Shown here one piece after another: positions 10,726 to 47,665 of a stretch of DNA of 64,000 nucleotides. The notes beneath the pieces were generated by a model that ran no database searches, was not told the origin of the DNA, and saw only the letters and a list, made by a program, of their open reading frames with translations. Origin of the DNA: Ignavibacteriota bacterium. Lineage in GTDB: Bacteria > Bacteroidota > Ignavibacteria > UBA10030. The position numbers and the translations under genes were made by a program. Position 1 is the stretch's first letter, and every line of letters begins with the position of its first letter. The DNA lies in the NCBI GenBank assembly GCA_963701295.1, contig OY969585.1:3520001-3584000 (forward strand), in the 5' to 3' direction.

Positions 10726-11083
10726 CGTCGCTCGTAGCCTTGCTGCTCGTTAACTCTAGTATATGAAAAGTACTTTTCTGTTCCACGAAGTTATTACTTG
10801 CGATTACGCACGTCTCGTTGTGCAGAAGACAAATTACTACCCTCGCCGTTGCTCGAAAATTACTCCTGCTGATCTATACTTTGTGGAAAACAAATTTCCC
10901 CTATATCCCTGATTATAAATCTATCTAGAATACATCAGAAGGTCTTTCGTTTTAAAACATTCTTCGTTAGTTATTCTATTACGCCACAGGCGTATCAGTC
11001 TTTGGCGGAGAAATATTTTTTGCTTAGACTCTTGACATTGAACACAGTACATGGTTAGACGACAAAAAAATACTTTACGGCTA

Positions 11084-13412: not shown

Positions 13413-13953
13413 ACCTAACGGATGGCGGCTAAGTCCCGATTTGATCTTCGATCAAATCGAGTATCCCGTACAGCGGGACTGACGTGCTGATAACTTTTGC
13501 GCCAGAGGCGCATGTGCCTTGGGCACACAATATACACAAAACGAACAAAGTTCATTCTAAAAAGTTTATTATTAATAACCAAACCTCTGCTCGCCATGCT
13601 TGGCGTACCACACCTGCCCCGCGTTTTTGCAGGGCTCATTCCGTTAGCTTGAATATTATGACAAAGTCAAGCCGATTTCAAGAGTACCAAATTGACCGAT
13701 TTGTAATTCGGAATATAACCGACTCCGACCACACTAACGCACACACCACCAGGTGAAACGAGCTTTCTCCATTGAATAGCCTTTGCTGACGTACATACTA
13801 TCTAGCTTCTGCGACTTGAAGAGTTGGGTCTTCTTCAAGCTGTAGGCTCGATGCGCCTTGAGCCGCGTTAGACTTCTTCAACTCTTCCTTGGTGTATGAC
13901 TTGTGTACCTTCCGTTATTTATGTCTTTAGTCTAATGGAACCGCTGGTTATGT
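13413..13953 (-). repeat. attC interrupted by two hairpin insertions and an insert of about 290 bp
   Basis: acctaacgga at 13413, ctggttatgt at 13944-13953, consensus arms broken by inserts. Confidence 0.8.
13653..13939. mobile_element. Putative non-autonomous, non-coding element inserted in attC
   Basis: Extra sequence between AGCTTGA and ACCGCTGG of the attC arm, GAA at both junctions, weak sub-terminal inverted repeats, several internal hairpins. Confidence 0.5.
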
Positions 13954-22053: not shown

Positions 22054-22289
22054 AACATCCTCCTTTTTAAATAAAAAGTTAAAAAATTAGTATTTAGTTT
22101 ACATAATATACTAAACGAAACAAGTTCATGCTGATAACCAAATTAATTTATCCCCAACCAACGAGGTACCGAAAAGGTAATAATAAAAACGTCAACCCAC
22201 CATTAGCCATGAATTTTGCAGTGCGCTCTTACCGTCAGCTTGAGCGCCTGGTATGTTGAGTCTGTGACAATTATTTTCGTATCCTAATC

Positions 22290-22475
22290 CATTGGCAAAG
22301 TCATAGGAGAGATAGGAGCCGCTAGATATCTTCCCAGAAGAATATCGTTAACCAGATACATCTCCCTATGACTTTCCGCTTCTCAAGAATCTGAACAGTA
22401 CTTTGAGATCCATATTTCTTTCCCGTGGAATCCCGTATAACGCACGAGTCAAGATCACAAGGAAGCTGCCAATGT
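22290..22475 (+). ncRNA. Putative bridge RNA of the IS621-like element
   Basis: Stem aaagtcatagg-agagat/atctc-cctatgacttt encloses GAGCCGCT and TAACCAG (attC target match); downstream ACAGTAC matches the element's right end. Confidence 0.75.
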
Positions 22476-22513
22476 ATTTCTTCTCTTAACCTCTATTTCA
22501 AGGAGCTTTTGCT

Positions 22514-23537
22514 ATGACGATCTTAAAACAAACCATCGGTATCGATGTCTCTTACAAATCCTTCGATGCCAGATTCGGTACCATCAATACTCAACAAGAA
22601 ATAAACCTATCTGCTTCAAAATCCTTCAAAAACTCACTCGCAGGATTCAAACTCTTTCTGCGATGGCTCAAGAAATATATCCTCTCCGACGATATTCCTC
22701 TGGTCTTTGTCATGGAAGCTACTGGCGTCTATTACGAACACCTCTCTCACTTCCTCTTCCAGCAGGGGTATCAAGTTGCCGTTATCCTGCCCAATAAAAT
22801 TAGAAATTATGCCAAATCTCTCGAATCCAAATCCAAAACCGATCCTCATCGATGCCGCCGTCATTACTCGATTTGGCCTTGAACGACAACTCTCACTCTG
22901 GATGCCGCCTTCAGAGACTATAAAAACTCTGCGCGATCTCTGCAGGGAATACCACTGCCTCAAAGCTAACTGCACGCAAATTAAGAATCAACTCCACGCT
23001 CTCCAATCTTCCTTCAAGCCGCACAGAGAGTCCTTCAAACGCAAAACCCAACTCCTCAAATTCCTCGAACGGCAGGTCGCGCTTATTAAAAAGGAACTTC
23101 TCGCCTTAGTCAAGACCGAGCCTGATCTTCTGGCCCAGCGTCTCAAGAAAATCAAAACAGCTAAAGGCCTCGGCGATATGACCATCCTCACCGTCCTATC
23201 TGAAACTCGCTGCTTTGAGCTTGTCTCCAATCAAAAGCAGCTTACCAGCTACGCTGGTTTCGACATCGTCTTTAACGACTCTGGCTTGAAGAAAGGAAAA
23301 ACTTCTATCTCAAAAAAGGGCAATAAGTTTATCCGTAAAGCTCTCTTTATGCCTGCCATCTCTGCCTGCCGGGCTAATCCTGATCTCAAAGAACTCTATC
23401 AACGTCTTATTGCTAAAGGCAAAAATAAAAAACTTGCCATCGTTGCTGTCGCTCGTAAATTATTACTCCTGATCTCCACGCTCTGGAAATCTAATTCTGT
23501 TTACGTCCCCACTTATAAACCGATCCAACTCGTTTAA
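22514..23537 (+). CDS. IS110 transposase/recombinase, frameshifted near 22845
   Basis: 'IGIDVS', 'MEATGVY', 'KTD.IDA', 'DSG' serine motif, 'ISKKGNKFIRKAL', 'AVARKLL'. Confidence 0.88.
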
Positions 23538-23622
23538 TACTTACGCTGTCTCTTGTTCTTTGAAATATTTTTTACTCTAACTCTTGACTTTTACCACAGT
23601 ACCTGGTTAGGCAGCAATTGTA

Positions 23623-36090: not shown

Positions 36091-36424
36091 ATAATTTAAA
36101 TTTAAATTTAAATTTAACGGAGAATTTTTCTTTTTAGTATCAATAAAGCTTTAAATTTCATCGAAGTTCGGCTTGCACTTAACTATTTCAAAACGCAACC
36201 TAACGGATGGCAACTAAGCTGCGGCACTAAAAACCCTCAAGTTGCCGAAAACGAACCAAGTTTATTATAAAATATTTCAATCAATAATCCCTAAGCGCCA
36301 TGCGTAACATACAAACGCTCATACCGTCAGCTTGAGTTGCTGGATATTACCAAAAAGGAATCTCCCGATTATGTACATTGATAATTCTCTAGGTCACCAA
36401 CATCCACAATCTAAGGAGATTCCC

Positions 36425-37426
36425 ATGTATTACTCAGGTATCGATTTGCATTCTGATAATTGTTTTATCACCACTGTTGATGACACTGGTGCTGTCATCA
36501 AGCGACAACGTGTCGAGAATAACAATGAACGTGTTCTTGATTACTTCCACTCTCTGCCCGGTCCTCATCACGCAGTCGTTGAGTCTACCACAGGATGGTA
36601 CTGGCTCAACGATCTTCTCAGCGATCACGGCATCGAGCTTGTCCTTGCTCACGCCAAATATCTCAAAGCCATCAGTTATGCTAAAGTTAAAACAGATAAA
36701 GTCGATTCGCAAACTCTTGCTCTTCTCTTACGACAGGGACTCATTCCACGGGCTCACAAAATCAGCCGAGAACTACGCGGCCTGCGCGATACCATGCGTA
36801 TTCGTCTACGGCTCGTTCAGCAACGAACTGCCAGTCTTCTGCGTCTCTACAGTATTCAGACCAAATTTAACGGCTCTGTTCCGGATCCGTATCGTTTTCA
36901 ACTTGCTGTCTTGCAACATACCAGAGACACTTTTACTGCTCAGATCCTCTCGCTGGAAAAATCTCTCCATCCTGTGCTGATTCCCAACGACGATATTCAA
37001 CGGCTCTTGCACATTCCAGGTATCGGCAAGCTCACCGCATTCACGGTGTATCTTGAAATCGACGGCATTGAACGATTCGACTCCGATAAAAAGTTTGTCT
37101 CTTACTGCCGACTCGTCCCTGCTGCCGATAACTCCAATCGCTCTGTGCACCATCGCTCCAGCAAAGACGGCAATAAGTATCTCAAAATCGCCTTCTCCGA
37201 TGCCGCTGTTCATGCTATTCAGTACTATCCGGAATACAAACGCTTATTCCAGAAATTAGCTCGTCGCTCCAATGAGGCGACTGCGCGAACCGTCGTTGCC
37301 AAAGAACTTGCGAAGATTGTTTACTATGTCTTAAAAAACAAAACAATATATAAAGGTCTCAAAGGTCAGCCGATCAGCCGGCATAAATCTCAGCAGTGGC
37401 CGCGCCTCTCAAGCCCGCTTTCCTAA
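36425..37426 (+). CDS. IS110-family transposase/recombinase
   Basis: RBS AAGGAG; 'GIDLH', 'VEST', 'KTDKVDS', 'IPGIG', 'SKDGNKYLK'. Confidence 0.92.
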   Translation: MYYSGIDLHSDNCFITTVDDTGAVIKRQRVENNNERVLDYFHSLPGPHHAVVESTTGWYWLNDLLSDHGIELVLAHAKYLKAISYAKVKTDKVDSQTLALLLRQGLIPRAHKISRELRGLRDTMRIRLRLVQQRTASLLRLYSIQTKFNGSVPDPYRFQLAVLQHTRDTFTAQILSLEKSLHPVLIPNDDIQRLLHIPGIGKLTAFTVYLEIDGIERFDSDKKFVSYCRLVPAADNSNRSVHHRSSKDGNKYLKIAFSDAAVHAIQYYPEYKRLFQKLARRSNEATARTVVAKELAKIVYYVLKNKTIYKGLKGQPISRHKSQQWPRLSSPLS

Positions 37427-37700
37427 CTGATCCCGACTGCGTCGGGATCGTTCGCTGGATTGGGAAGAGAGTGCGCTGTGCCGTGGTAATATCTGGAACA
37501 TCTCGCTCGACGAGATACGCTTTCACCATCGTTTCTTCAATGAGTGAATGTAAATCCGTAAACTGGTTTGGACGGCATTGCTCTGGTAATCGCCTGTCTA
37601 TTCGATAGAGAACGCGGCATCGGCACGGATTCGGTCGTCCTTAATGTTAAAGAACTCTGCATTCCGATTGCGCGGAACGCATCGGGAGTATATTATTTAC
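37400..37700 (+). ncRNA. Putative bridge/seek RNA of the IS1111-like element, copy 1
   Basis: Two stem-enclosed loops carrying CCTAAC + GCTGG (target) and GGTAATATC + TAAACTGG (donor junction). Confidence 0.7.
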
Positions 37701-37740
37701 TTGACTCTTTCCTTTTTAAACTGGTTATGTTGCAATTGTT

Positions 37741-39819
37741 TCATTTGAGCAAAACAAGTTTCTTCGTTTCAATAAATAAACCCACTTGTAAACGATAAAA
37801 GTAAATTCCGCTCGAAATAGTAGCCGCATTCCATTGACGTGCATGATTTCCTGTCGACATTTCTTCCGAAACCAGTGTTGCTACTTCTCTTCCTAAAATA
37901 TCAAACACCTTCAACGAGACAAAAGATCTATATGGAAGACTAAACGAAATAGTGGTCGACGGATTAAACGGATTAGGATAGTTTTGTTTAAGAGTGAAAT
38001 GCGTTGGTAAGTCGGTCGAATGTTTTACCACTGAAGTGATCACCTCCGACAACTGACGTCTCCAGACGCCGTCCCCAGTCCCTGCAAAAAGATTCGAATC
38101 GGATAAAGCAAGAGCTTGGACAAAATCGTTTGTTAATCCGGTATTGACTTGAGTCCAACTTGTACCATTGTTGGTAGAAAGAAAGACACCGTCATCCAAA
38201 GTTCCAGCAAAGAGAGTTGTACCGGATACAGCAAAAGCATTGATATAATTAGCGTAATTTCCTGTCAATCCTGAATTGACCGCAGTCCAGCTCGCGCCGT
38301 TGTTGGTAGAAAGAAATACACCACCGCCAGAAGTCCCTGCAAAAAGATTCTGGCCGGAAACTGCAAGAGCTAGAACGGTATCATTCGTCAATCCAGTGTT
38401 GACTTGAGTCCAATTTGTACCATTGTTAGTAGAAAGAAAAACGCCATAATAAGTCCCGGCAAAGAGATTCTGGCTGGAAACTGCAAGAGCTAGAACGGTA
38501 TCATTCGTCAATCCAGTGTTGACTTGAGTCCAATTTGTGCCATTGTTAGTAGAAAGAAAAACGCCATAATAAGTCCCGGCAAAGAGATTTGTTCCGGAAA
38601 GGGCAACAGTAGAGACATGAGTGTTCGTCGGTAACCCTGAATTAACAGCATTCCAGCTTGTACCGCTGTTGCTGGAACGAAAGACGCCATCCCTAGTCGC
38701 TGCAAAAAGATTCGAATCGGATAAAGTAAGAGCTTGAACAGTATCGTTCATCAATCCGTTATTGACTACAGTCCAGTTCGTGCCGTTGTTAGTCGAAAGA
38801 AAAACACCACCGCCTTGAGTCCCTGCAAATATTTTTTTATTGGAGATCGCGAGTGTTAAGACTTGAATATCTGTCAAGCTGGTATTAACATCAGTCCAAC
38901 TAATACCGCTATTGGTCGAAAGAAAGATGCCGGCGTCCCGAGTTCCTGCAAAGAGATTTGTACTGGAGACTACAAGAGCATTGACCCAATTGGACGTTAA
39001 GCCGCTATTAACCGCAGTCCAAGTCGTACCATTGGAAGTAGAAAGAAAGACACCTCCGTTCGGGTACGCAGCAAAGAGATTTGTGCCTGAGACTGCAAGA
39101 GCATTGACACCAGCATACTTTAAACCGGTGATGTCCCAGCCTGCGCCGTTATTGGTGGAAAGAAAAACGCCTCCGTTAGCTCCTGCAAAAAGATTTGTGT
39201 CGTAAGCGACAAAAGCATAGACATTAGTGTACGATAAACCGGTATTAACCCAACTTGTACCGTTGTTAGTGGAACGAAAGATACCACCAGAAGTTCCTGC
39301 AAAGAGATTCGTGTCAAAAGCGGCAAGTGTCCATACACAGGTATTCGTCACGCCGGTATTAACCCAACTTGTACCGTTATCACTGGAACGAAAGACGCCG
39401 CTCCAAGTCCCTGCAAAAAGATTCCCGCTAAATACTGTAAGAGCTGTAATAAAATTGTCTGTCAATCCGGAATTGACCGCAGTCCAGCTCATGCCGTTGT
39501 TAATAGAGAGAAAGACACCCCCGCCAGAAGTCCCTGCAAAGATATTCTTTCCAGAAACTGCAAGAGAAGAGACTTCATTATTTGTCAAGCCATTGCTCGC
39601 CGCAATCCAGCTTGTACCGTTATTGGTAGAGAGAATGACACCACCGTCCCAAGTTCCTACGAAGAGATTCGTGTCTGACACGGCAAAGCAAGTTACGTCG
39701 GAGCTACCGACTCCTTTGGTTTGGATCCATTGAGCACGCAATTGATTTGTAGTTGTGAAGAAAACCAATAATACAAAGAGAAATCTGCTAGAACGGACAA
39801 TTCGGAAAATATTTTTCAT
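37741..39819 (-). CDS. Secreted beta-propeller repeat protein with T9SS CTD (paralogue of 13964..15276)
   Basis: About 14 'NLFAGT..GVFLSTNNG..W' repeats; CTD. Confidence 0.85.
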   Translation of the reverse strand: MKNIFRIVRSSRFLFVLLVFFTTTNQLRAQWIQTKGVGSSDVTCFAVSDTNLFVGTWDGGVILSTNNGTSWIAASNGLTNNEVSSLAVSGKNIFAGTSGGGVFLSINNGMSWTAVNSGLTDNFITALTVFSGNLFAGTWSGVFRSSDNGTSWVNTGVTNTCVWTLAAFDTNLFAGTSGGIFRSTNNGTSWVNTGLSYTNVYAFVAYDTNLFAGANGGVFLSTNNGAGWDITGLKYAGVNALAVSGTNLFAAYPNGGVFLSTSNGTTWTAVNSGLTSNWVNALVVSSTNLFAGTRDAGIFLSTNSGISWTDVNTSLTDIQVLTLAISNKKIFAGTQGGGVFLSTNNGTNWTVVNNGLMNDTVQALTLSDSNLFAATRDGVFRSSNSGTSWNAVNSGLPTNTHVSTVALSGTNLFAGTYYGVFLSTNNGTNWTQVNTGLTNDTVLALAVSSQNLFAGTYYGVFLSTNNGTNWTQVNTGLTNDTVLALAVSGQNLFAGTSGGGVFLSTNNGASWTAVNSGLTGNYANYINAFAVSGTTLFAGTLDDGVFLSTNNGTSWTQVNTGLTNDFVQALALSDSNLFAGTGDGVWRRQLSEVITSVVKHSTDLPTHFTLKQNYPNPFNPSTTISFSLPYRSFVSLKVFDILGREVATLVSEEMSTGNHARQWNAATISSGIYFYRLQVGLFIETKKLVLLK
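38341..38580. repeat. Near-perfect 120 bp intragenic tandem duplication
   Basis: 38341-38460 and 38461-38580 differ at only a few positions. Confidence 0.85.
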
Positions 39820-39857
39820 ATGTTCATCTTTTGTGAAATGGTAAAATATCAATTGCA

Positions 39858-40011
39858 ACATAACGGACCGGCGCTAAGCTGCGGCGCTGATAATTTTCAA
39901 TATCTACTAAACGAAATGAGTTCATGCTGGTTCTTTCAAATTACACCAAGCCTTTGCGCGCCATGAATTTTGCACTACGCTCATTCCGTCAGCTTGAGCG
40001 CCTGGTTAGGG
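39858..40011 (-). repeat. attC
   Basis: Consensus arms present. Confidence 0.92.
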
Positions 40012-40057: not shown

Positions 40058-40339
40058 ATGAACATCATCTGGGATGAAGAGAAAAACAACAAACTAAAGA
40101 AAGAACGCCACATTTCGTTTGAAGAAATCGAATCATTAATATTGGCAAAGAAATATATAGAAATAGTGAAACATCCAAAACGTATTGGCCAGAGAGTTTT
40201 TATAATTCCAATTAAAGGATATGTACACGCTGTACCGTTCTTGTTAGATGATGACAACAATATTGTTTTGAAAACTGCGTTTCCAAGTCGGAAATTTCAT
40301 AAAAAATATGGACAAAAGAACAATGAAAACAAAACTTGA
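40058..40339 (+). CDS. BrnT-like toxin
   Basis: 'WDEEKN..LK.ER.ISFE' motif; overlaps the downstream antitoxin. Confidence 0.8.
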   Translation: MNIIWDEEKNNKLKKERHISFEEIESLILAKKYIEIVKHPKRIGQRVFIIPIKGYVHAVPFLLDDDNNIVLKTAFPSRKFHKKYGQKNNENKT

Positions 40340-40622
40340 TAAATACGAAAAAGAAATAGAACGATCCGCTAATTCCTACCATTCAGTATCGAAAAATGAG
40401 CGGAACAAAATAGAAGGCGTCTTAGATCGCATAAGAAAAACTAGAAACGTAAATATTCGCCTTTCTGAATCCGTCTTGGAACAACTGAAACGACGTTCCC
40501 GTGAAGAAGGAATCCCTTATCAGACACTTATTTCTAGTGTTTTGCATAAATTTGTTACCGATCGTCTTATAGACGAAGCCGCTATAAGAAAGTCTGTACG
40601 ACTGCTTCATTCTGCCCAATAG
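40323..40622 (+). CDS. BrnA/CopG-like RHH antitoxin
   Basis: 'VNIRL....L..LK.....EGIPYQTLI.S.LH'. Confidence 0.8.
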   Translation: MKTKLDKYEKEIERSANSYHSVSKNERNKIEGVLDRIRKTRNVNIRLSESVLEQLKRRSREEGIPYQTLISSVLHKFVTDRLIDEAAIRKSVRLLHSAQ

Positions 40623-42592: not shown

Positions 42593-42829
42593 ATGAAATG
42601 CGCCCTAACGGATGGCAACTAAGCTGCGGCACTAAAAACCCTCAAGTTGCCGAAAACGAACCAAGTTTATTATAAAATATTTCAATCAATAATCCCTAAG
42701 CGCCATGCGTAACATACAAACGCTCATTCCGTCAGCTTGAGTTGCTGGATATTACCAAAAAGGAATCTCCCGATTATGTACATTGATAATTCTCTAGGTC
42801 ACCAACATCCACAATCTAAGGAGATTCCC

Positions 42830-43831
42830 ATGTATTACTCAGGTATCGATTTGCATTCTGATAATTGTTTTATCACCACTGTTGATGACACTGGTGCTGT
42901 CATCAAGCGACAACGTGTCGAGAATAACAATGAACGTGTTCTTGATTACTTCCACTCTCTGCCCGGTCCTCATCACGCAGTCGTTGAGTCTACCACAGGA
43001 TGGTACTGGCTCAACGATCTTCTCAGCGATCACGGCATCGAGCTTGTCCTTGCTCACGCCAAATATCTCAAAGCCATCAGTTATGCTAAAGTTAAAACAG
43101 ATAAAGTCGATTCGCAAACTCTTGCTCTTCTCTTACGACAGGGACTCATTCCACGGGCTCACAAAATCAGCCGAGAACTACGCGGCCTGCGCGATACCAT
43201 GCGTATTCGTCTACGGCTCGTTCAGCAACGAACTGCCAGTCTTCTGCGTCTCTACAGTATTCAGACCAAATTTAACGGCTCTGTTCCGGATCCGTATCGT
43301 TTTCAACTTGCTGTCTTGCAACATACCAGAGACACTTTTACTGCTCAGATCCTCTCGCTGGAAAAATCTCTCCATCCTGTGCTGATTCCCAACGACGATA
43401 TTCAACGGCTCTTGCACATTCCAGGTATCGGCAAGCTCACCGCATTCACGGTGTATCTTGAAATCGACGGCATTGAACGATTCGACTCCGATAAAAAGTT
43501 TGTCTCTTACTGCCGACTCGTCCCTGCTGCCGATAACTCCAATCGCTCTGTGCACCATCGCTCCAGCAAAGACGGCAATAAGTATCTCAAAATCGCCTTC
43601 TCCGATGCCGCTGTTCATGCTATTCAGTACTATCCGGAATACAAACGCTTATTCCAGAAATTAGCTCGTCGCTCCAATGAGGCGACTGCGCGAACCGTCG
43701 TTGCCAAAGAACTTGCGAAGATTGTTTACTATGTCTTAAAAAACAAAACAATATATAAAGGTCTCAAAGGTCAGCCGATCAGCCGGCATAAATCTCAGCA
43801 GTGGCCGCGCCTCTCAAGCCCGCTTTCCTAA
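42830..43831 (+). CDS. IS110-family transposase/recombinase
   Basis: Same protein as 36425..37426. Confidence 0.92.
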   Translation: MYYSGIDLHSDNCFITTVDDTGAVIKRQRVENNNERVLDYFHSLPGPHHAVVESTTGWYWLNDLLSDHGIELVLAHAKYLKAISYAKVKTDKVDSQTLALLLRQGLIPRAHKISRELRGLRDTMRIRLRLVQQRTASLLRLYSIQTKFNGSVPDPYRFQLAVLQHTRDTFTAQILSLEKSLHPVLIPNDDIQRLLHIPGIGKLTAFTVYLEIDGIERFDSDKKFVSYCRLVPAADNSNRSVHHRSSKDGNKYLKIAFSDAAVHAIQYYPEYKRLFQKLARRSNEATARTVVAKELAKIVYYVLKNKTIYKGLKGQPISRHKSQQWPRLSSPLS

Positions 43832-44105
43832 CTGATCCCGACTGCGTCGGGATCGTTCGCTGGATTGGGAAGAGAGTGCGCTGTGCCGTGGTAATATCTG
43901 GAACATCTCGCTCGACGAGATACGCTTTCACCATCGTTTCTTCAATGAGTGAATGTAAATCCGTAAACTGGTTTGGACGGCATTGCTCTGGTAATCGCCT
44001 GTCTATTCGATAGAGAACGCGGCATCGGCACGGATTCGGTCGTCCTTAATGTTAAAGAACTCTGCATTCCGATTGCGCGGAACGCATCGGGAGTATATTA
44101 TTTAC
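43805..44105 (+). ncRNA. Putative bridge/seek RNA, copy 2
   Basis: Same sequence as 37400..37700. Confidence 0.7.
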
Positions 44106-44161
44106 TTGACTCTTTCCTTTTTAAACTGGTTAGGTGCTGTGCCCAGCATTTGCCCGTTATT

Positions 44162-46705: not shown

Positions 46706-47665
46706 ATGGCCGAACAAAAGTTGTTAGATCGCGTCCGCGATTGCATACGAACCAAACACCTCAGCATTCGCACCGAAGAAGTCTATCTCAATTGGATCAA
46801 ACGTTACATCCTCTTTCATCAAAAGAAGCATCCTCGTGAATTGCGGGAACCGCACATTGAACAATTTCTCACTTCCCTGGCAGTGGATAGCCAGGTCTCT
46901 GCTTCCACACAAAATCAAGCACTGAATGCCATCTTGTTTCTCTATCGCGAAGTGCTTCATATAAAGATCGGGGACATGAATGAAATTATCAGGGCAAAGA
47001 GAACTCAGCGTATCCCTGTCGTCTTTACGAAAAAGGAGATTGAATCTATCCTGCAATATCTCCACGGATCACAAAGACTGATCTGTGCCCTGCTCTACGG
47101 CAGCGGCATGCGCCTGCTCGAATGTCATCGACTGCGCATAAAAGACATCGACTTTCTCAGAAAACAAATCATCGTACGCGAAGGAAAAGGAGAAAAAGAC
47201 CGCATAACGATTCTTCCTGCATCGCTTCTTACGCACCTCGAACATCAAATCGCTAAAGTGAAACTCCTGCATCAAGAAGATAAAACCGATGGCTATGGCG
47301 ATGTATATTTACCGGATGCCATCCGCATAAAATTTCCGCGGGCTGCAAAAGAATTACTATGGCAATATGTATTCCCCTCTTCAAGGCGTTCGATGGATCC
47401 GCTAACAGGAGCCGTCCAACGGCACCATATTGATGAAAGTGTTGTGCAACGCGCTTTTAAAACAGCGTTACAAAAATCCAAAGTGAGAAAAGCAGGAACA
47501 ATACACTCCTTGCGTCACTCATTCGCAACACATCTCTTAGAAGATGGGCACGACATCCGCACCGTCCAGGAATTATTAGGGCACAAAGATGTTAGGACTA
47601 CGATGATCTACACTCACGTCCTGAACAAAAAAGGTCTCACCGTCCGAAGCCCGCTGGATACATAA
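46706..47665 (+). CDS. intI: Integron integrase
   Basis: Tyrosine recombinase residues ('YGSGMR', '[10 protein letters not shown]', 'LGH', 'TMIYTHV') plus the IntI-specific insert 'VYLPDAI..KFP.A...WQYVFPS...RHH'. Confidence 0.96.

Follow-up and report, generated by a model that had tools for sequence, protein, structure and literature searches.

RNA-guided targeting of integron attC sites has been established for ISKpn4, ISPst6 and ISPa25 (PMC11187229, in part; citations so marked refer to a portion of the source), and the insertions of IS1111-attC elements lie close to the 5′ end of attC, in antisense orientation to the array (PMC3001079, in part). The long seekRNAs of ISEc11 and ISPa11 start 74 and 39 bp past the stop codon (bioRxiv 2024.04.26.591405, in part). 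In IS621, a handshake arrangement between RNA and DNA favours insertion (PMC11208158 and PMC13626964, both in part). The literature that we searched, with the primary papers of 2008–2009 and ISfinder outside the search, yielded no description of the clade reported below, of attC targeting of the ISGsu4 type, of the target or RNA of ISGsu4, or of a bridge RNA overlapping a recombinase gene. The parts of PMC11616780, PMC9229058, PMC12444791, bioRxiv 2026.10.21.760802 and bioRxiv 2025.10.25.684509 that were available likewise held nothing on the clade, on ISGsu4-type attC targeting or on RNA–gene overlap.

Here we describe element B, which lies in an integron array within a window of 64,000 nucleotides (the window being the whole stretch of DNA analysed). 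We consider B to be an IS110-family insertion sequence, in this genome only in attC. A two-loop bridge RNA is predicted at its right end, and this RNA likely guides the recombinase to the 2-bp core GG that lies between R″ and L″ (probability of this account about 0.85). Sequence and comparison establish where the element ends and that its insertion point is constant; they likewise establish the gene with its catalytic residues, the conserved fold of the RNA and the covariation of guides with flanks. B is new by lineage, junction geometry and gene–RNA overlap, and the mechanism is a known one. We are fairly confident that B is a real element, probably active by the known bridge-RNA mechanism. 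The features of the element and its surroundings are as follows.

36199..36341, minus strand: R′, L′ and L″ part of the interrupted attC; the repeats of the site recur across the window, and the genome has 96 empty sites of the same form.
36340..37724, plus strand: element B copy 1, an intact IS110-family insertion sequence; the span includes the apparent 4-bp repeat CTGG at either end.
36342-36343 and 37723-37724: 2-bp core GG of copy 1; the core size comes from homologues.
36344..36351, plus strand: left-end donor segment ATATTACC; with a core G it gives GATATT, the predicted -10 box of a putative circle-junction promoter.
36352..36360, plus strand: left subterminal inverted repeat AAAAAGGAA, from sequence.
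36362-36369: second short repeat CTCCCGAT, pairing with 37681-37688.
36425..37426, plus strand: DEDD/Ser recombinase gene, encoding 333 aa; the predicted RNA begins within it, covering its stop and the 10 codons before.
37701..37706, plus strand: predicted -35 box TTGACT, 17 bp from the -10 box after end joining.
37709..37722, plus strand: right subterminal inverted repeat TTCCTTTTT and right-end donor bases AAACT.
37724..37730, minus strand: R″ box of the interrupted attC, which B has separated from L″; it belongs to the cassette with a 706-aa ORF at 37741-39861 (minus strand).
42745..44129, plus strand: element B copy 2, which interrupts a different attC of this array and is followed by TTAGG on the right; 99.7% identical block.
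46706..47665, plus strand: integron integrase of the array (TIGR02249, 453 bits, above cut-off).

The cassettes of the 64-kb window lie on the minus strand, separated by repeated attC sites, and B is inserted antisense to them near the 5′ end of attC. Joining the flanks of copy 1 recreated intact attCs of related cassettes. Genome-wide, there are nine copies of B (99.9–100% identity, with differing flanks), two copies of a variant that we call B′ (81–83% identity in nucleotides, 89% in amino acids) and five short matches to the ends alone. All 11 full copies (nine B and two B′) occupy the same attC position, between R″ and L″. G-CTGG was found at 8 of 9 occupied attCs versus 30 of 96 empty ones (p = 0.001); merging of copies with shared flanks left 6 of 7 occupied sites (p = 0.007). 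The first-pass annotation of this DNA had given TTAGG as the right target. This is the right flank at eight of the nine copies, but copy 1 (36340-37724), the one described there, has TTATG. The right flank starts with TTA at 89 of 99 sites of the B family. The annotation had also placed the end of the element at 37730; the actual end is 37724.

Some copies of B share flanks. The two in the window have almost the whole R′–L″ part of attC in common (36191-36339 and 42596-42744; four differences) next to different R″-side cassettes, and two further copies, outside the window, are flanked identically on the left and the right. These shared flanks suggest duplication or recombination through the element, not independent insertions. 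Five solo right ends of B-like elements (31–81 bp; G000:C1 near 1810043, 2382022, 2384975, 3157429 and 3333610) are likely deletion relics; after four of them comes R″-type TTAGG, and some have been joined to the left portion of an attC. On the same chromosome (G000:C1), attC-like sites number at least 107 and form about nine separate clusters.

The recombinase of B matched both PF01548 and PF02371 and scored 170 bits against NF033542 (cut-off 140). It has the DEDD RuvC domain and the Tnp domain with a catalytic serine that characterize IS110-family proteins, and residues D7, E53, D91, D94 and S237 were invariant in an alignment of 13 rows. The structure model gave TM scores of 0.75–0.76 against IS621 and ISCro4 (0.76 for IS621); residues 320–333, the tail encoded over the RNA, had pLDDT values below 50. 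B thus resembles IS621 in its fold and in its DEDD and serine active site (PMC11208160, PMC11208158 and PMC13626964, all in part). In the same sources, IS621 also has the two loops, the four guides overlapping a 2-bp core and the post-exchange handshake dinucleotides that we predict for B, and an RNA of 177 nt compared with the ≈ 183 nt predicted here. The two elements differ in that the IS621 RNA lies upstream and its core is CT, whereas the RNA of B lies downstream (≈ 295 bp of non-coding DNA follow the gene versus 85 bp before it) and the core is GG or, in relatives, TG. Unlike IS621, B and its homologues have inverted repeats of 6–14 bp, and the proteins are only about 20% identical. B also reads its site from the opposite strand relative to the gene, which accounts for its "IS1111-type" guide order.

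The RNA predicted at the right end of B has the following parts.

37396..37578, plus strand: predicted bridge RNA, ≈ 183 nt, from the consensus fold of 91 RNAs; its ends are those of the predicted structure.
37396-37400 with 37574-37578: outer stem closing the predicted RNA; 81–100% canonical pairs in about 90 RNAs.
37402..37476, plus strand: target-binding arm, with the stem GCGCCTCTC (37402-37410) and GAGAGTGCGC (37467-37476), beginning within the coding sequence.
37421..37427, plus strand: 5′ target guide (T)CCTAAC, complementary to a core G and the right flank TTAGG; contains the stop TAA.
37430-37449: hairpin in the target arm.
37452..37460, plus strand: 3′ target guide TCGCTGG, then the handshake dinucleotide AT; reads the left flank and core.
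37485..37493, plus strand: 5′ donor guide GGTAATATC, complementary to a core G and the left end; perfect in B.
37559..37568, plus strand: 3′ donor guide TAAACTGG (37559-37566), then the handshake dinucleotide TT; reads the right end and core.

The consensus fold of the 91 RNAs, from which loci L011 and L035 were excluded, consists of the outer stem, the target arm and the donor arm. In the target-arm stem, 84–99% of the pairs were canonical, with 26–53 double-sided changes at seven of the nine pairs. The RNA region of B by itself folded only moderately (z −1.9). Rfam gave no match within the 64-kb window. The first-pass annotation had proposed a second stem, between TGCCGT (37479) and ACGGCA (37572). 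Its pairs were canonical in 61, 89, 10, 97, 41 and 65% of about 90 RNAs versus the 81–100% of the outer stem, and we rejected it as a structure of the family.

The overlap of RNA and gene, also proposed there, is real at the level of sequence: the final codons contain a stem that covaries, and the TAA stop (37424-37426) lies inside the guide CCTAAC (37422-37427). The stop codon was within the R″-reading guide in 69 of 93 RNAs, and two RNAs keep a stop at the guide position as TGA. In the other 24 the stop was elsewhere or unscorable (read-through, frameshifts), and a strict stop-codon constraint on the guide is thus unsupported. A comparable overlap between guide RNA and the end of an ORF occurs with TnpB. 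In a more distant group (L183–L186; 30–31% identity, 14-bp inverted repeats and a very compact 3′ region), the RNA-like scaffold of L184–L186 also seems to start ahead of the stop codon.

To compare the guides with their flanks, we used homologues from searches of genomes and metagenomes, which returned 187 loci. The named hosts were mainly Ignavibacteria, Rhodothermales, Gemmatimonadota, Marinimicrobia and Calditrichia. The 198 candidates were these loci with L001 replaced by the 11 copies of its own genome; loci below 39% identity or incomplete were excluded. A rule relying on the inverted repeats, without recourse to the RNA, located both ends of 113 elements; its 15-bp repeat spacing had been derived from B and the earliest loci before being applied to the rest. 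After curation (L120 dropped, four elements re-registered by hand, L050 without anchor), 111 remained, and merging of duplicates and short flanks gave 99 distinct sites with 87 RNAs (effective n of 62). The covariation counts retain L011 (misaligned), L164 (uncertain register) and L007 (internal duplication).

In an unbiased scan of all well-filled RNA columns against all junction bases, the 5′ target guide (37426-37421) covaried with the right flank (kappa 0.27–0.66), the predicted base being the best at five of six positions and second at +5. The 3′ target guide (37452-37457) followed the left flank and core from LT−3 to core p3 (kappa 0.37–0.70; predicted base best at six of six). The strongest signal was that between the 3′ donor guide (37560-37565) and the right end (kappa 0.68–1.00; predicted base best at five of six and second at p3). 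The 5′ donor guide appeared in the scan at two positions only (kappa 0.45–0.50), and its match across the family fell from 98–99 of 99 at the core to 30 of 99 at +8. Diagonals were thus recovered for three of the four guides, and the fourth, GGTAATATC, is supported near the core only. Cognate matches were 5.5 of 7 for the 3′ target guide compared with 3.9 in shuffled pairings, 6.6 versus 4.4 of 7 for the 3′ donor guide, and 5.8 versus 5.2 of 7 and 6.4 versus 6.0 of 9 for the remaining two; the observed values were reached in 0 of 2000 shuffles for each guide, in a procedure that ignores relatedness.

Tree-aware pairs gave 7.0 changes in the same direction and 0 in the opposite of 9 at LT−1 (median p = 0.016), 5.9 and 0 of 7 at p2 (p = 0.031) and 6.7 and 0.2 of 10 at RT+4 (p = 0.031). 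For the right-end donor guide, the pairs were unanimous in the expected direction, at 1 to 5 per test and below significance. The same analysis gave no support for RD+3 (1.5 same and 0.7 opposite of 4), RD+6 (0.7 and 0 of 6) or LT−3 (1.7 and 0.3 of 7). We therefore do not retain the distal portion of the 9-nt 5′ donor guide or LT−3 as having tree-aware support.

The short strings on which the proposal of a guide RNA had been built were recovered in place or adjoining (including GCTGG at 37454-37458, TGCCGT at 37479 and ACGGCA at 37572). The annotation had warned that the target matches, of 5–6 nt, could be chance. This caution was justified: in 20,000 dinucleotide shuffles of 37395-37600, CCTAAC occurred in 3.0%, GCTGG in 30.7%, GGTAATATC in 0.04% and TAAACTGG in 0.3%, and all four together in none. 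The two target matches alone could thus be chance, and it is the covariation in homologues that settles them. A right-end guide RNA with target and donor loops, as originally suggested, is supported by both the conserved fold and the guides that covary with flanks; covariation bears out three guides and, near the core only, the 5′ donor guide. The claim that the donor guides match both strands of the predicted circle junction is borne out by covariation in the family for the 3′ guide; the 5′ guide matches perfectly in B and is supported in the family near the core. In the target loop, 37421-37427 is complementary to the top strand and 37452-37458 is identical to it.

The two B′ copies (G000:C1:2396400-2397750 and 2408600-2410040) have the guide CCTCAC instead of CCTAAC, as a result of which the B′ ORF extends by four codons, and their left junction is TTAG. 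The B′ flanks match this guide poorly. In one copy the donor guide has changed along with the right end; the other copy has a different right end. At L007, the right end runs back into the RNA gene of the element itself in a tandem duplication with its junction at the donor guide, which resembles the sequence of an element end.

The homologues also defined the core. Junction positions 1 to 4 were identical on the left and right in 17, 31, 76 and 98 of the 99 sites, from which we take the core of B to be GG (TG in many relatives). A 4-bp core CTGG was rejected, because positions 1 and 2 were shared in just 17 and 31 sites; only 11 of the 99 sites, those of B and three close relatives, have CTGG at both ends. 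At the left junction, positions 1 and 2 follow the target guide, and at the right junction they follow the donor guide. Core position 3 was unlike between the junctions in 23 of 99 sites and had the same letter in both loops in 94 of 97 (sites with both guides G or T, or scorable). The two bases after either 3′ guide spell the junctions formed by insertion. The first handshake base agreed with the post-exchange partner in 99 of 99 sites (target guide, donor base) and 97 of 98 (donor guide, target base), and with the pre-exchange partner in 2 and 0. The second did not discriminate (89 versus 82 and 80 versus 80). Since base 1 is invariant and base 2 undiscriminating, the handshake match is one of agreement and conservation, not of covariation. 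IS621 has the same A/U opposite donor A/T (PMC11208158, in part). B thus has further marks of the IS110 family: a predicted non-coding RNA with target and donor loops whose guides covary with flanks (near the core only for the 5′ donor guide), and a short shared core, here of 2 bp, with handshake bases of which the first is invariant.

These results bear on the possibility that the target arm alone works as a short seekRNA, the protein reading the ends at the inverted repeats and the donor loop being dispensable or used for excision only. A short RNA of 82 nt suffices for ISEc11 (PMC11187229, in part), B has inverted repeats, and its 5′ donor guide is poorly conserved distally. However, the 3′ donor guide has the strongest covariation of all (kappa up to 1.0), and core position 3 carries the same letter in the two loops. 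We regard a target arm acting alone as unlikely and favour a bridge RNA that uses both loops.

To place B among its relatives, we built a protein tree of 39 rows (57 proteins less 18 that were removed beforehand; a further 3 on long branches were taken out for the AU test). The IS1111 references, named by record annotation, were ISEc11, IS4321, ISKpn2 and IS5708; the tree was made without ISKpn4, ISPa21, IS621 and ISGsu4 themselves. The B clade was sister to ISGsu4-like proteins (99/98), and the four IS1111 references and the Piv/IS621-like group formed clades separate from it. A clade of B with the four references was rejected (AU p = 0.028); one uniting B, the ISGsu4-like proteins and IS1111 was not (p = 0.062). 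The transposase of B was 20–24% identical to the four references versus 31% to an ISGsu4-family protein. The sister group (ISGsu4, ISGsu5, ISShfr7 and ISShwo5 of ISfinder; PMC11187229 and PMC11208160, both in part) was identified via L188, annotated "ISGsu4 family". It has the GIDLH, WYW and SYCRLV motifs in common with B, a 3′ non-coding region and, by eye, a similar scaffold, and differs in being only about 31% identical. In the sister elements L013, L019, L188, L197 and L198 the stop precedes the RNA scaffold, unlike in B. The left flanks of the relatives L013, L014, L018, L019, L030 and L197 are attC-like by eye. Published source data list ISGsu4 as IS110 and ISShwo5 as IS1111 and place ISGsu4 at 17–18% identity to ISPst6, ISKpn4 and ISPa21 (PMC11187229, in part).

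The label "IS1111-like", given to B in the first-pass annotation, accordingly fits its layout and not its descent; the phylogeny suggested there did separate B from the window's other IS110 element, element A, but did not put B within IS1111. As in IS1111 elements, a long non-coding region lies downstream of the gene, the inverted repeats are subterminal, and the top-strand guide precedes the bottom-strand guide. The repeats are perfect over 9 bp in B, which is below the 11–13 bp of one definition (PMC11187229, in part) and within the 7–17 bp of another (PMC11208160, in part). Among homologues, the arms range from 6 to 14 bp and vary in concert, arm pairing having been the rule for calling ends. 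The terminal extensions of IS1111, 7 bp left and 3 bp right, were not found: the predicted circle junction has 15 bp between the two subterminal repeats rather than 10. The transposase did not cluster with IS1111-type proteins, represented by the four references only. B thus works in the IS1111 manner yet lacks two features of membership.

In these respects, B is like the IS1111-attC group as described in part of the literature (ISKpn4, ISPst6, ISPa21, ISPa25): RNA-guided, near the attC 5′ end and antisense to the cassettes (PMC3001079, in part), with the RNA downstream of the gene. It could be an ordinary member that owes its attC targeting to a common ancestor, and the wider clade that the AU test did not reject would allow this. 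We nevertheless find such membership quite improbable in view of the separate starred clades, the low identities of both B and ISGsu4 to IS1111 proteins, the wider spacing at the junction, and an RNA that overlaps the gene instead of starting past the stop as in ISEc11 and ISPa11. The B clade is likely a separate attC-targeting lineage, reached apart from the described ones. The 3′ RNA, the inverted repeats and the reversed guide order occur here outside the IS1111 clade, alongside IS621-type handshake bases. This mix suggests that the reversed order is a mere flip of the site relative to the gene and not another mechanism, a point left open in PMC11187229 (in part).

Protein recognition of the folded, single-stranded attC hairpin, with the RNA matches as by-products of chance or flank copying, is very improbable. 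In its favour, attC has structure, the matches to the target are of few bases (a 5-mer in 31% of shuffles) and 30 G-CTGG attCs are still empty. Against it, the guides track flank changes in independent lineages, including sites without the R″-type TTA (L009, L076, L102 and L152), their matches extend to either strand and to either side of the core, and occupied sites are enriched for the guide-matching base.

With a bridge RNA as the guide, insertion may be pictured by analogy with IS621. B would excise as a circle, and the joined ends would build the promoter TTGACT–17 bp–GATATT; the mRNA would then come from a single transcript whose 3′ portion also supplies the ≈ 183-nt RNA. The target loop would act on attC in double-stranded form, opening ≈ 11–13 bp of it ([C/T]G CT GG TTAG[G]), and the donor loop would hold the junction of the circle. 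The strands would be exchanged at the GG core with the aid of handshake bases, which form pairs only once the exchange has occurred. Insertion parts R″ from L″ by 1.38 kb and would block use of the attC by the integrase until B leaves. As to the promoter, 107 of 112 elements had TTGAC at a constant spacing, the calling rule itself having included a TTG-like word close to the end, and the first A and the fifth-position T of the left-end donor segment were invariant in 99 of 99 sites; the fixed-distance -35 box and the invariant -10 bases fit a circle-junction promoter. No end-to-end circle joint was seen in the contigs of four runs (X1, X2, X15 and X16, of 22 listed), or by a degenerate pattern in the homologous loci or the genome; the RNA runs comprised assembled contigs from relatives only (6–8% of words).

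The same array holds a second IS110 element.

22248..23606, plus strand: element A, an IS621/Piv-like IS110 element with a frameshifted transposase, a left-end RNA and core CT.
22316 and 22349: guides of element A, GAGCCGCT and TAACCAG, which end at CT.

Elements A and B are unrelated, as had been claimed, with 26% amino acid identity and separate starred clades, A falling in the Piv/IS621-like group. For the A family, 16 of 25 loci were used and 15 scored (two loci of genome G669 were excluded). CT was the core at 15 of 15 scored sites, and an attC-like right flank was found at three of the 15, two of them in this genome. The distant relatives of A thus mostly target other sequences, which upholds the proposed convergence of A and B on one attC spacer; from the tree and these non-attC relatives we infer that the two targeting habits arose independently. 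The proposal that both use the same 4 bp as core did not stand: the cores, CT and GG, are adjacent within the same four bases. The two genes point in the same direction, and the site is read from opposite strands.

Two unrelated recombinases thus converge on one spacer via different cores, and B extends RNA-guided parasitism of integron sites past the described IS1111-attC group. A broader reading has, in our view, about an even chance of being correct. By this reading, an undescribed and widespread clade, in the host groups named above, would be a third IS110 lineage converging on the R″–L″ spacer of attC. Its bridge RNA would be overprinted by the recombinase gene, with the gene's own TAA stop serving as the guide that reads the TAA of R″, such that producing the guide costs the mRNA its stop. 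In one array, B and an IS621-like element would cut adjacent 2-bp cores of the same four bases on opposite strands. Because guide RNA and stop codon overlap, a trade-off of mRNA against guide is predicted, which can be tested. B is intact and multi-copy and its relatives offer many natural guide variants, making it a ready candidate for the bench.

The left target guide of A (22316-22323) matches the GAGCCG-CT class of attC, which is also occupied by B, and not its own flank, GAGCGC-CT. An A-like remnant (10830-11060; gene tail and right end, 84% identity over 49 bp) occupies an attC-like site next to an acyltransferase gene, at the array's far end. Within the array, a BrnT/BrnA-like toxin–antitoxin pair (40058-40622) is on the strand opposite to the cassettes. 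The large cassette gene at 37741-39861 encodes BNR repeats and a type IX secretion C-terminal tail, and similar C-termini recur in cassettes near 13944, 20547 and 23603.
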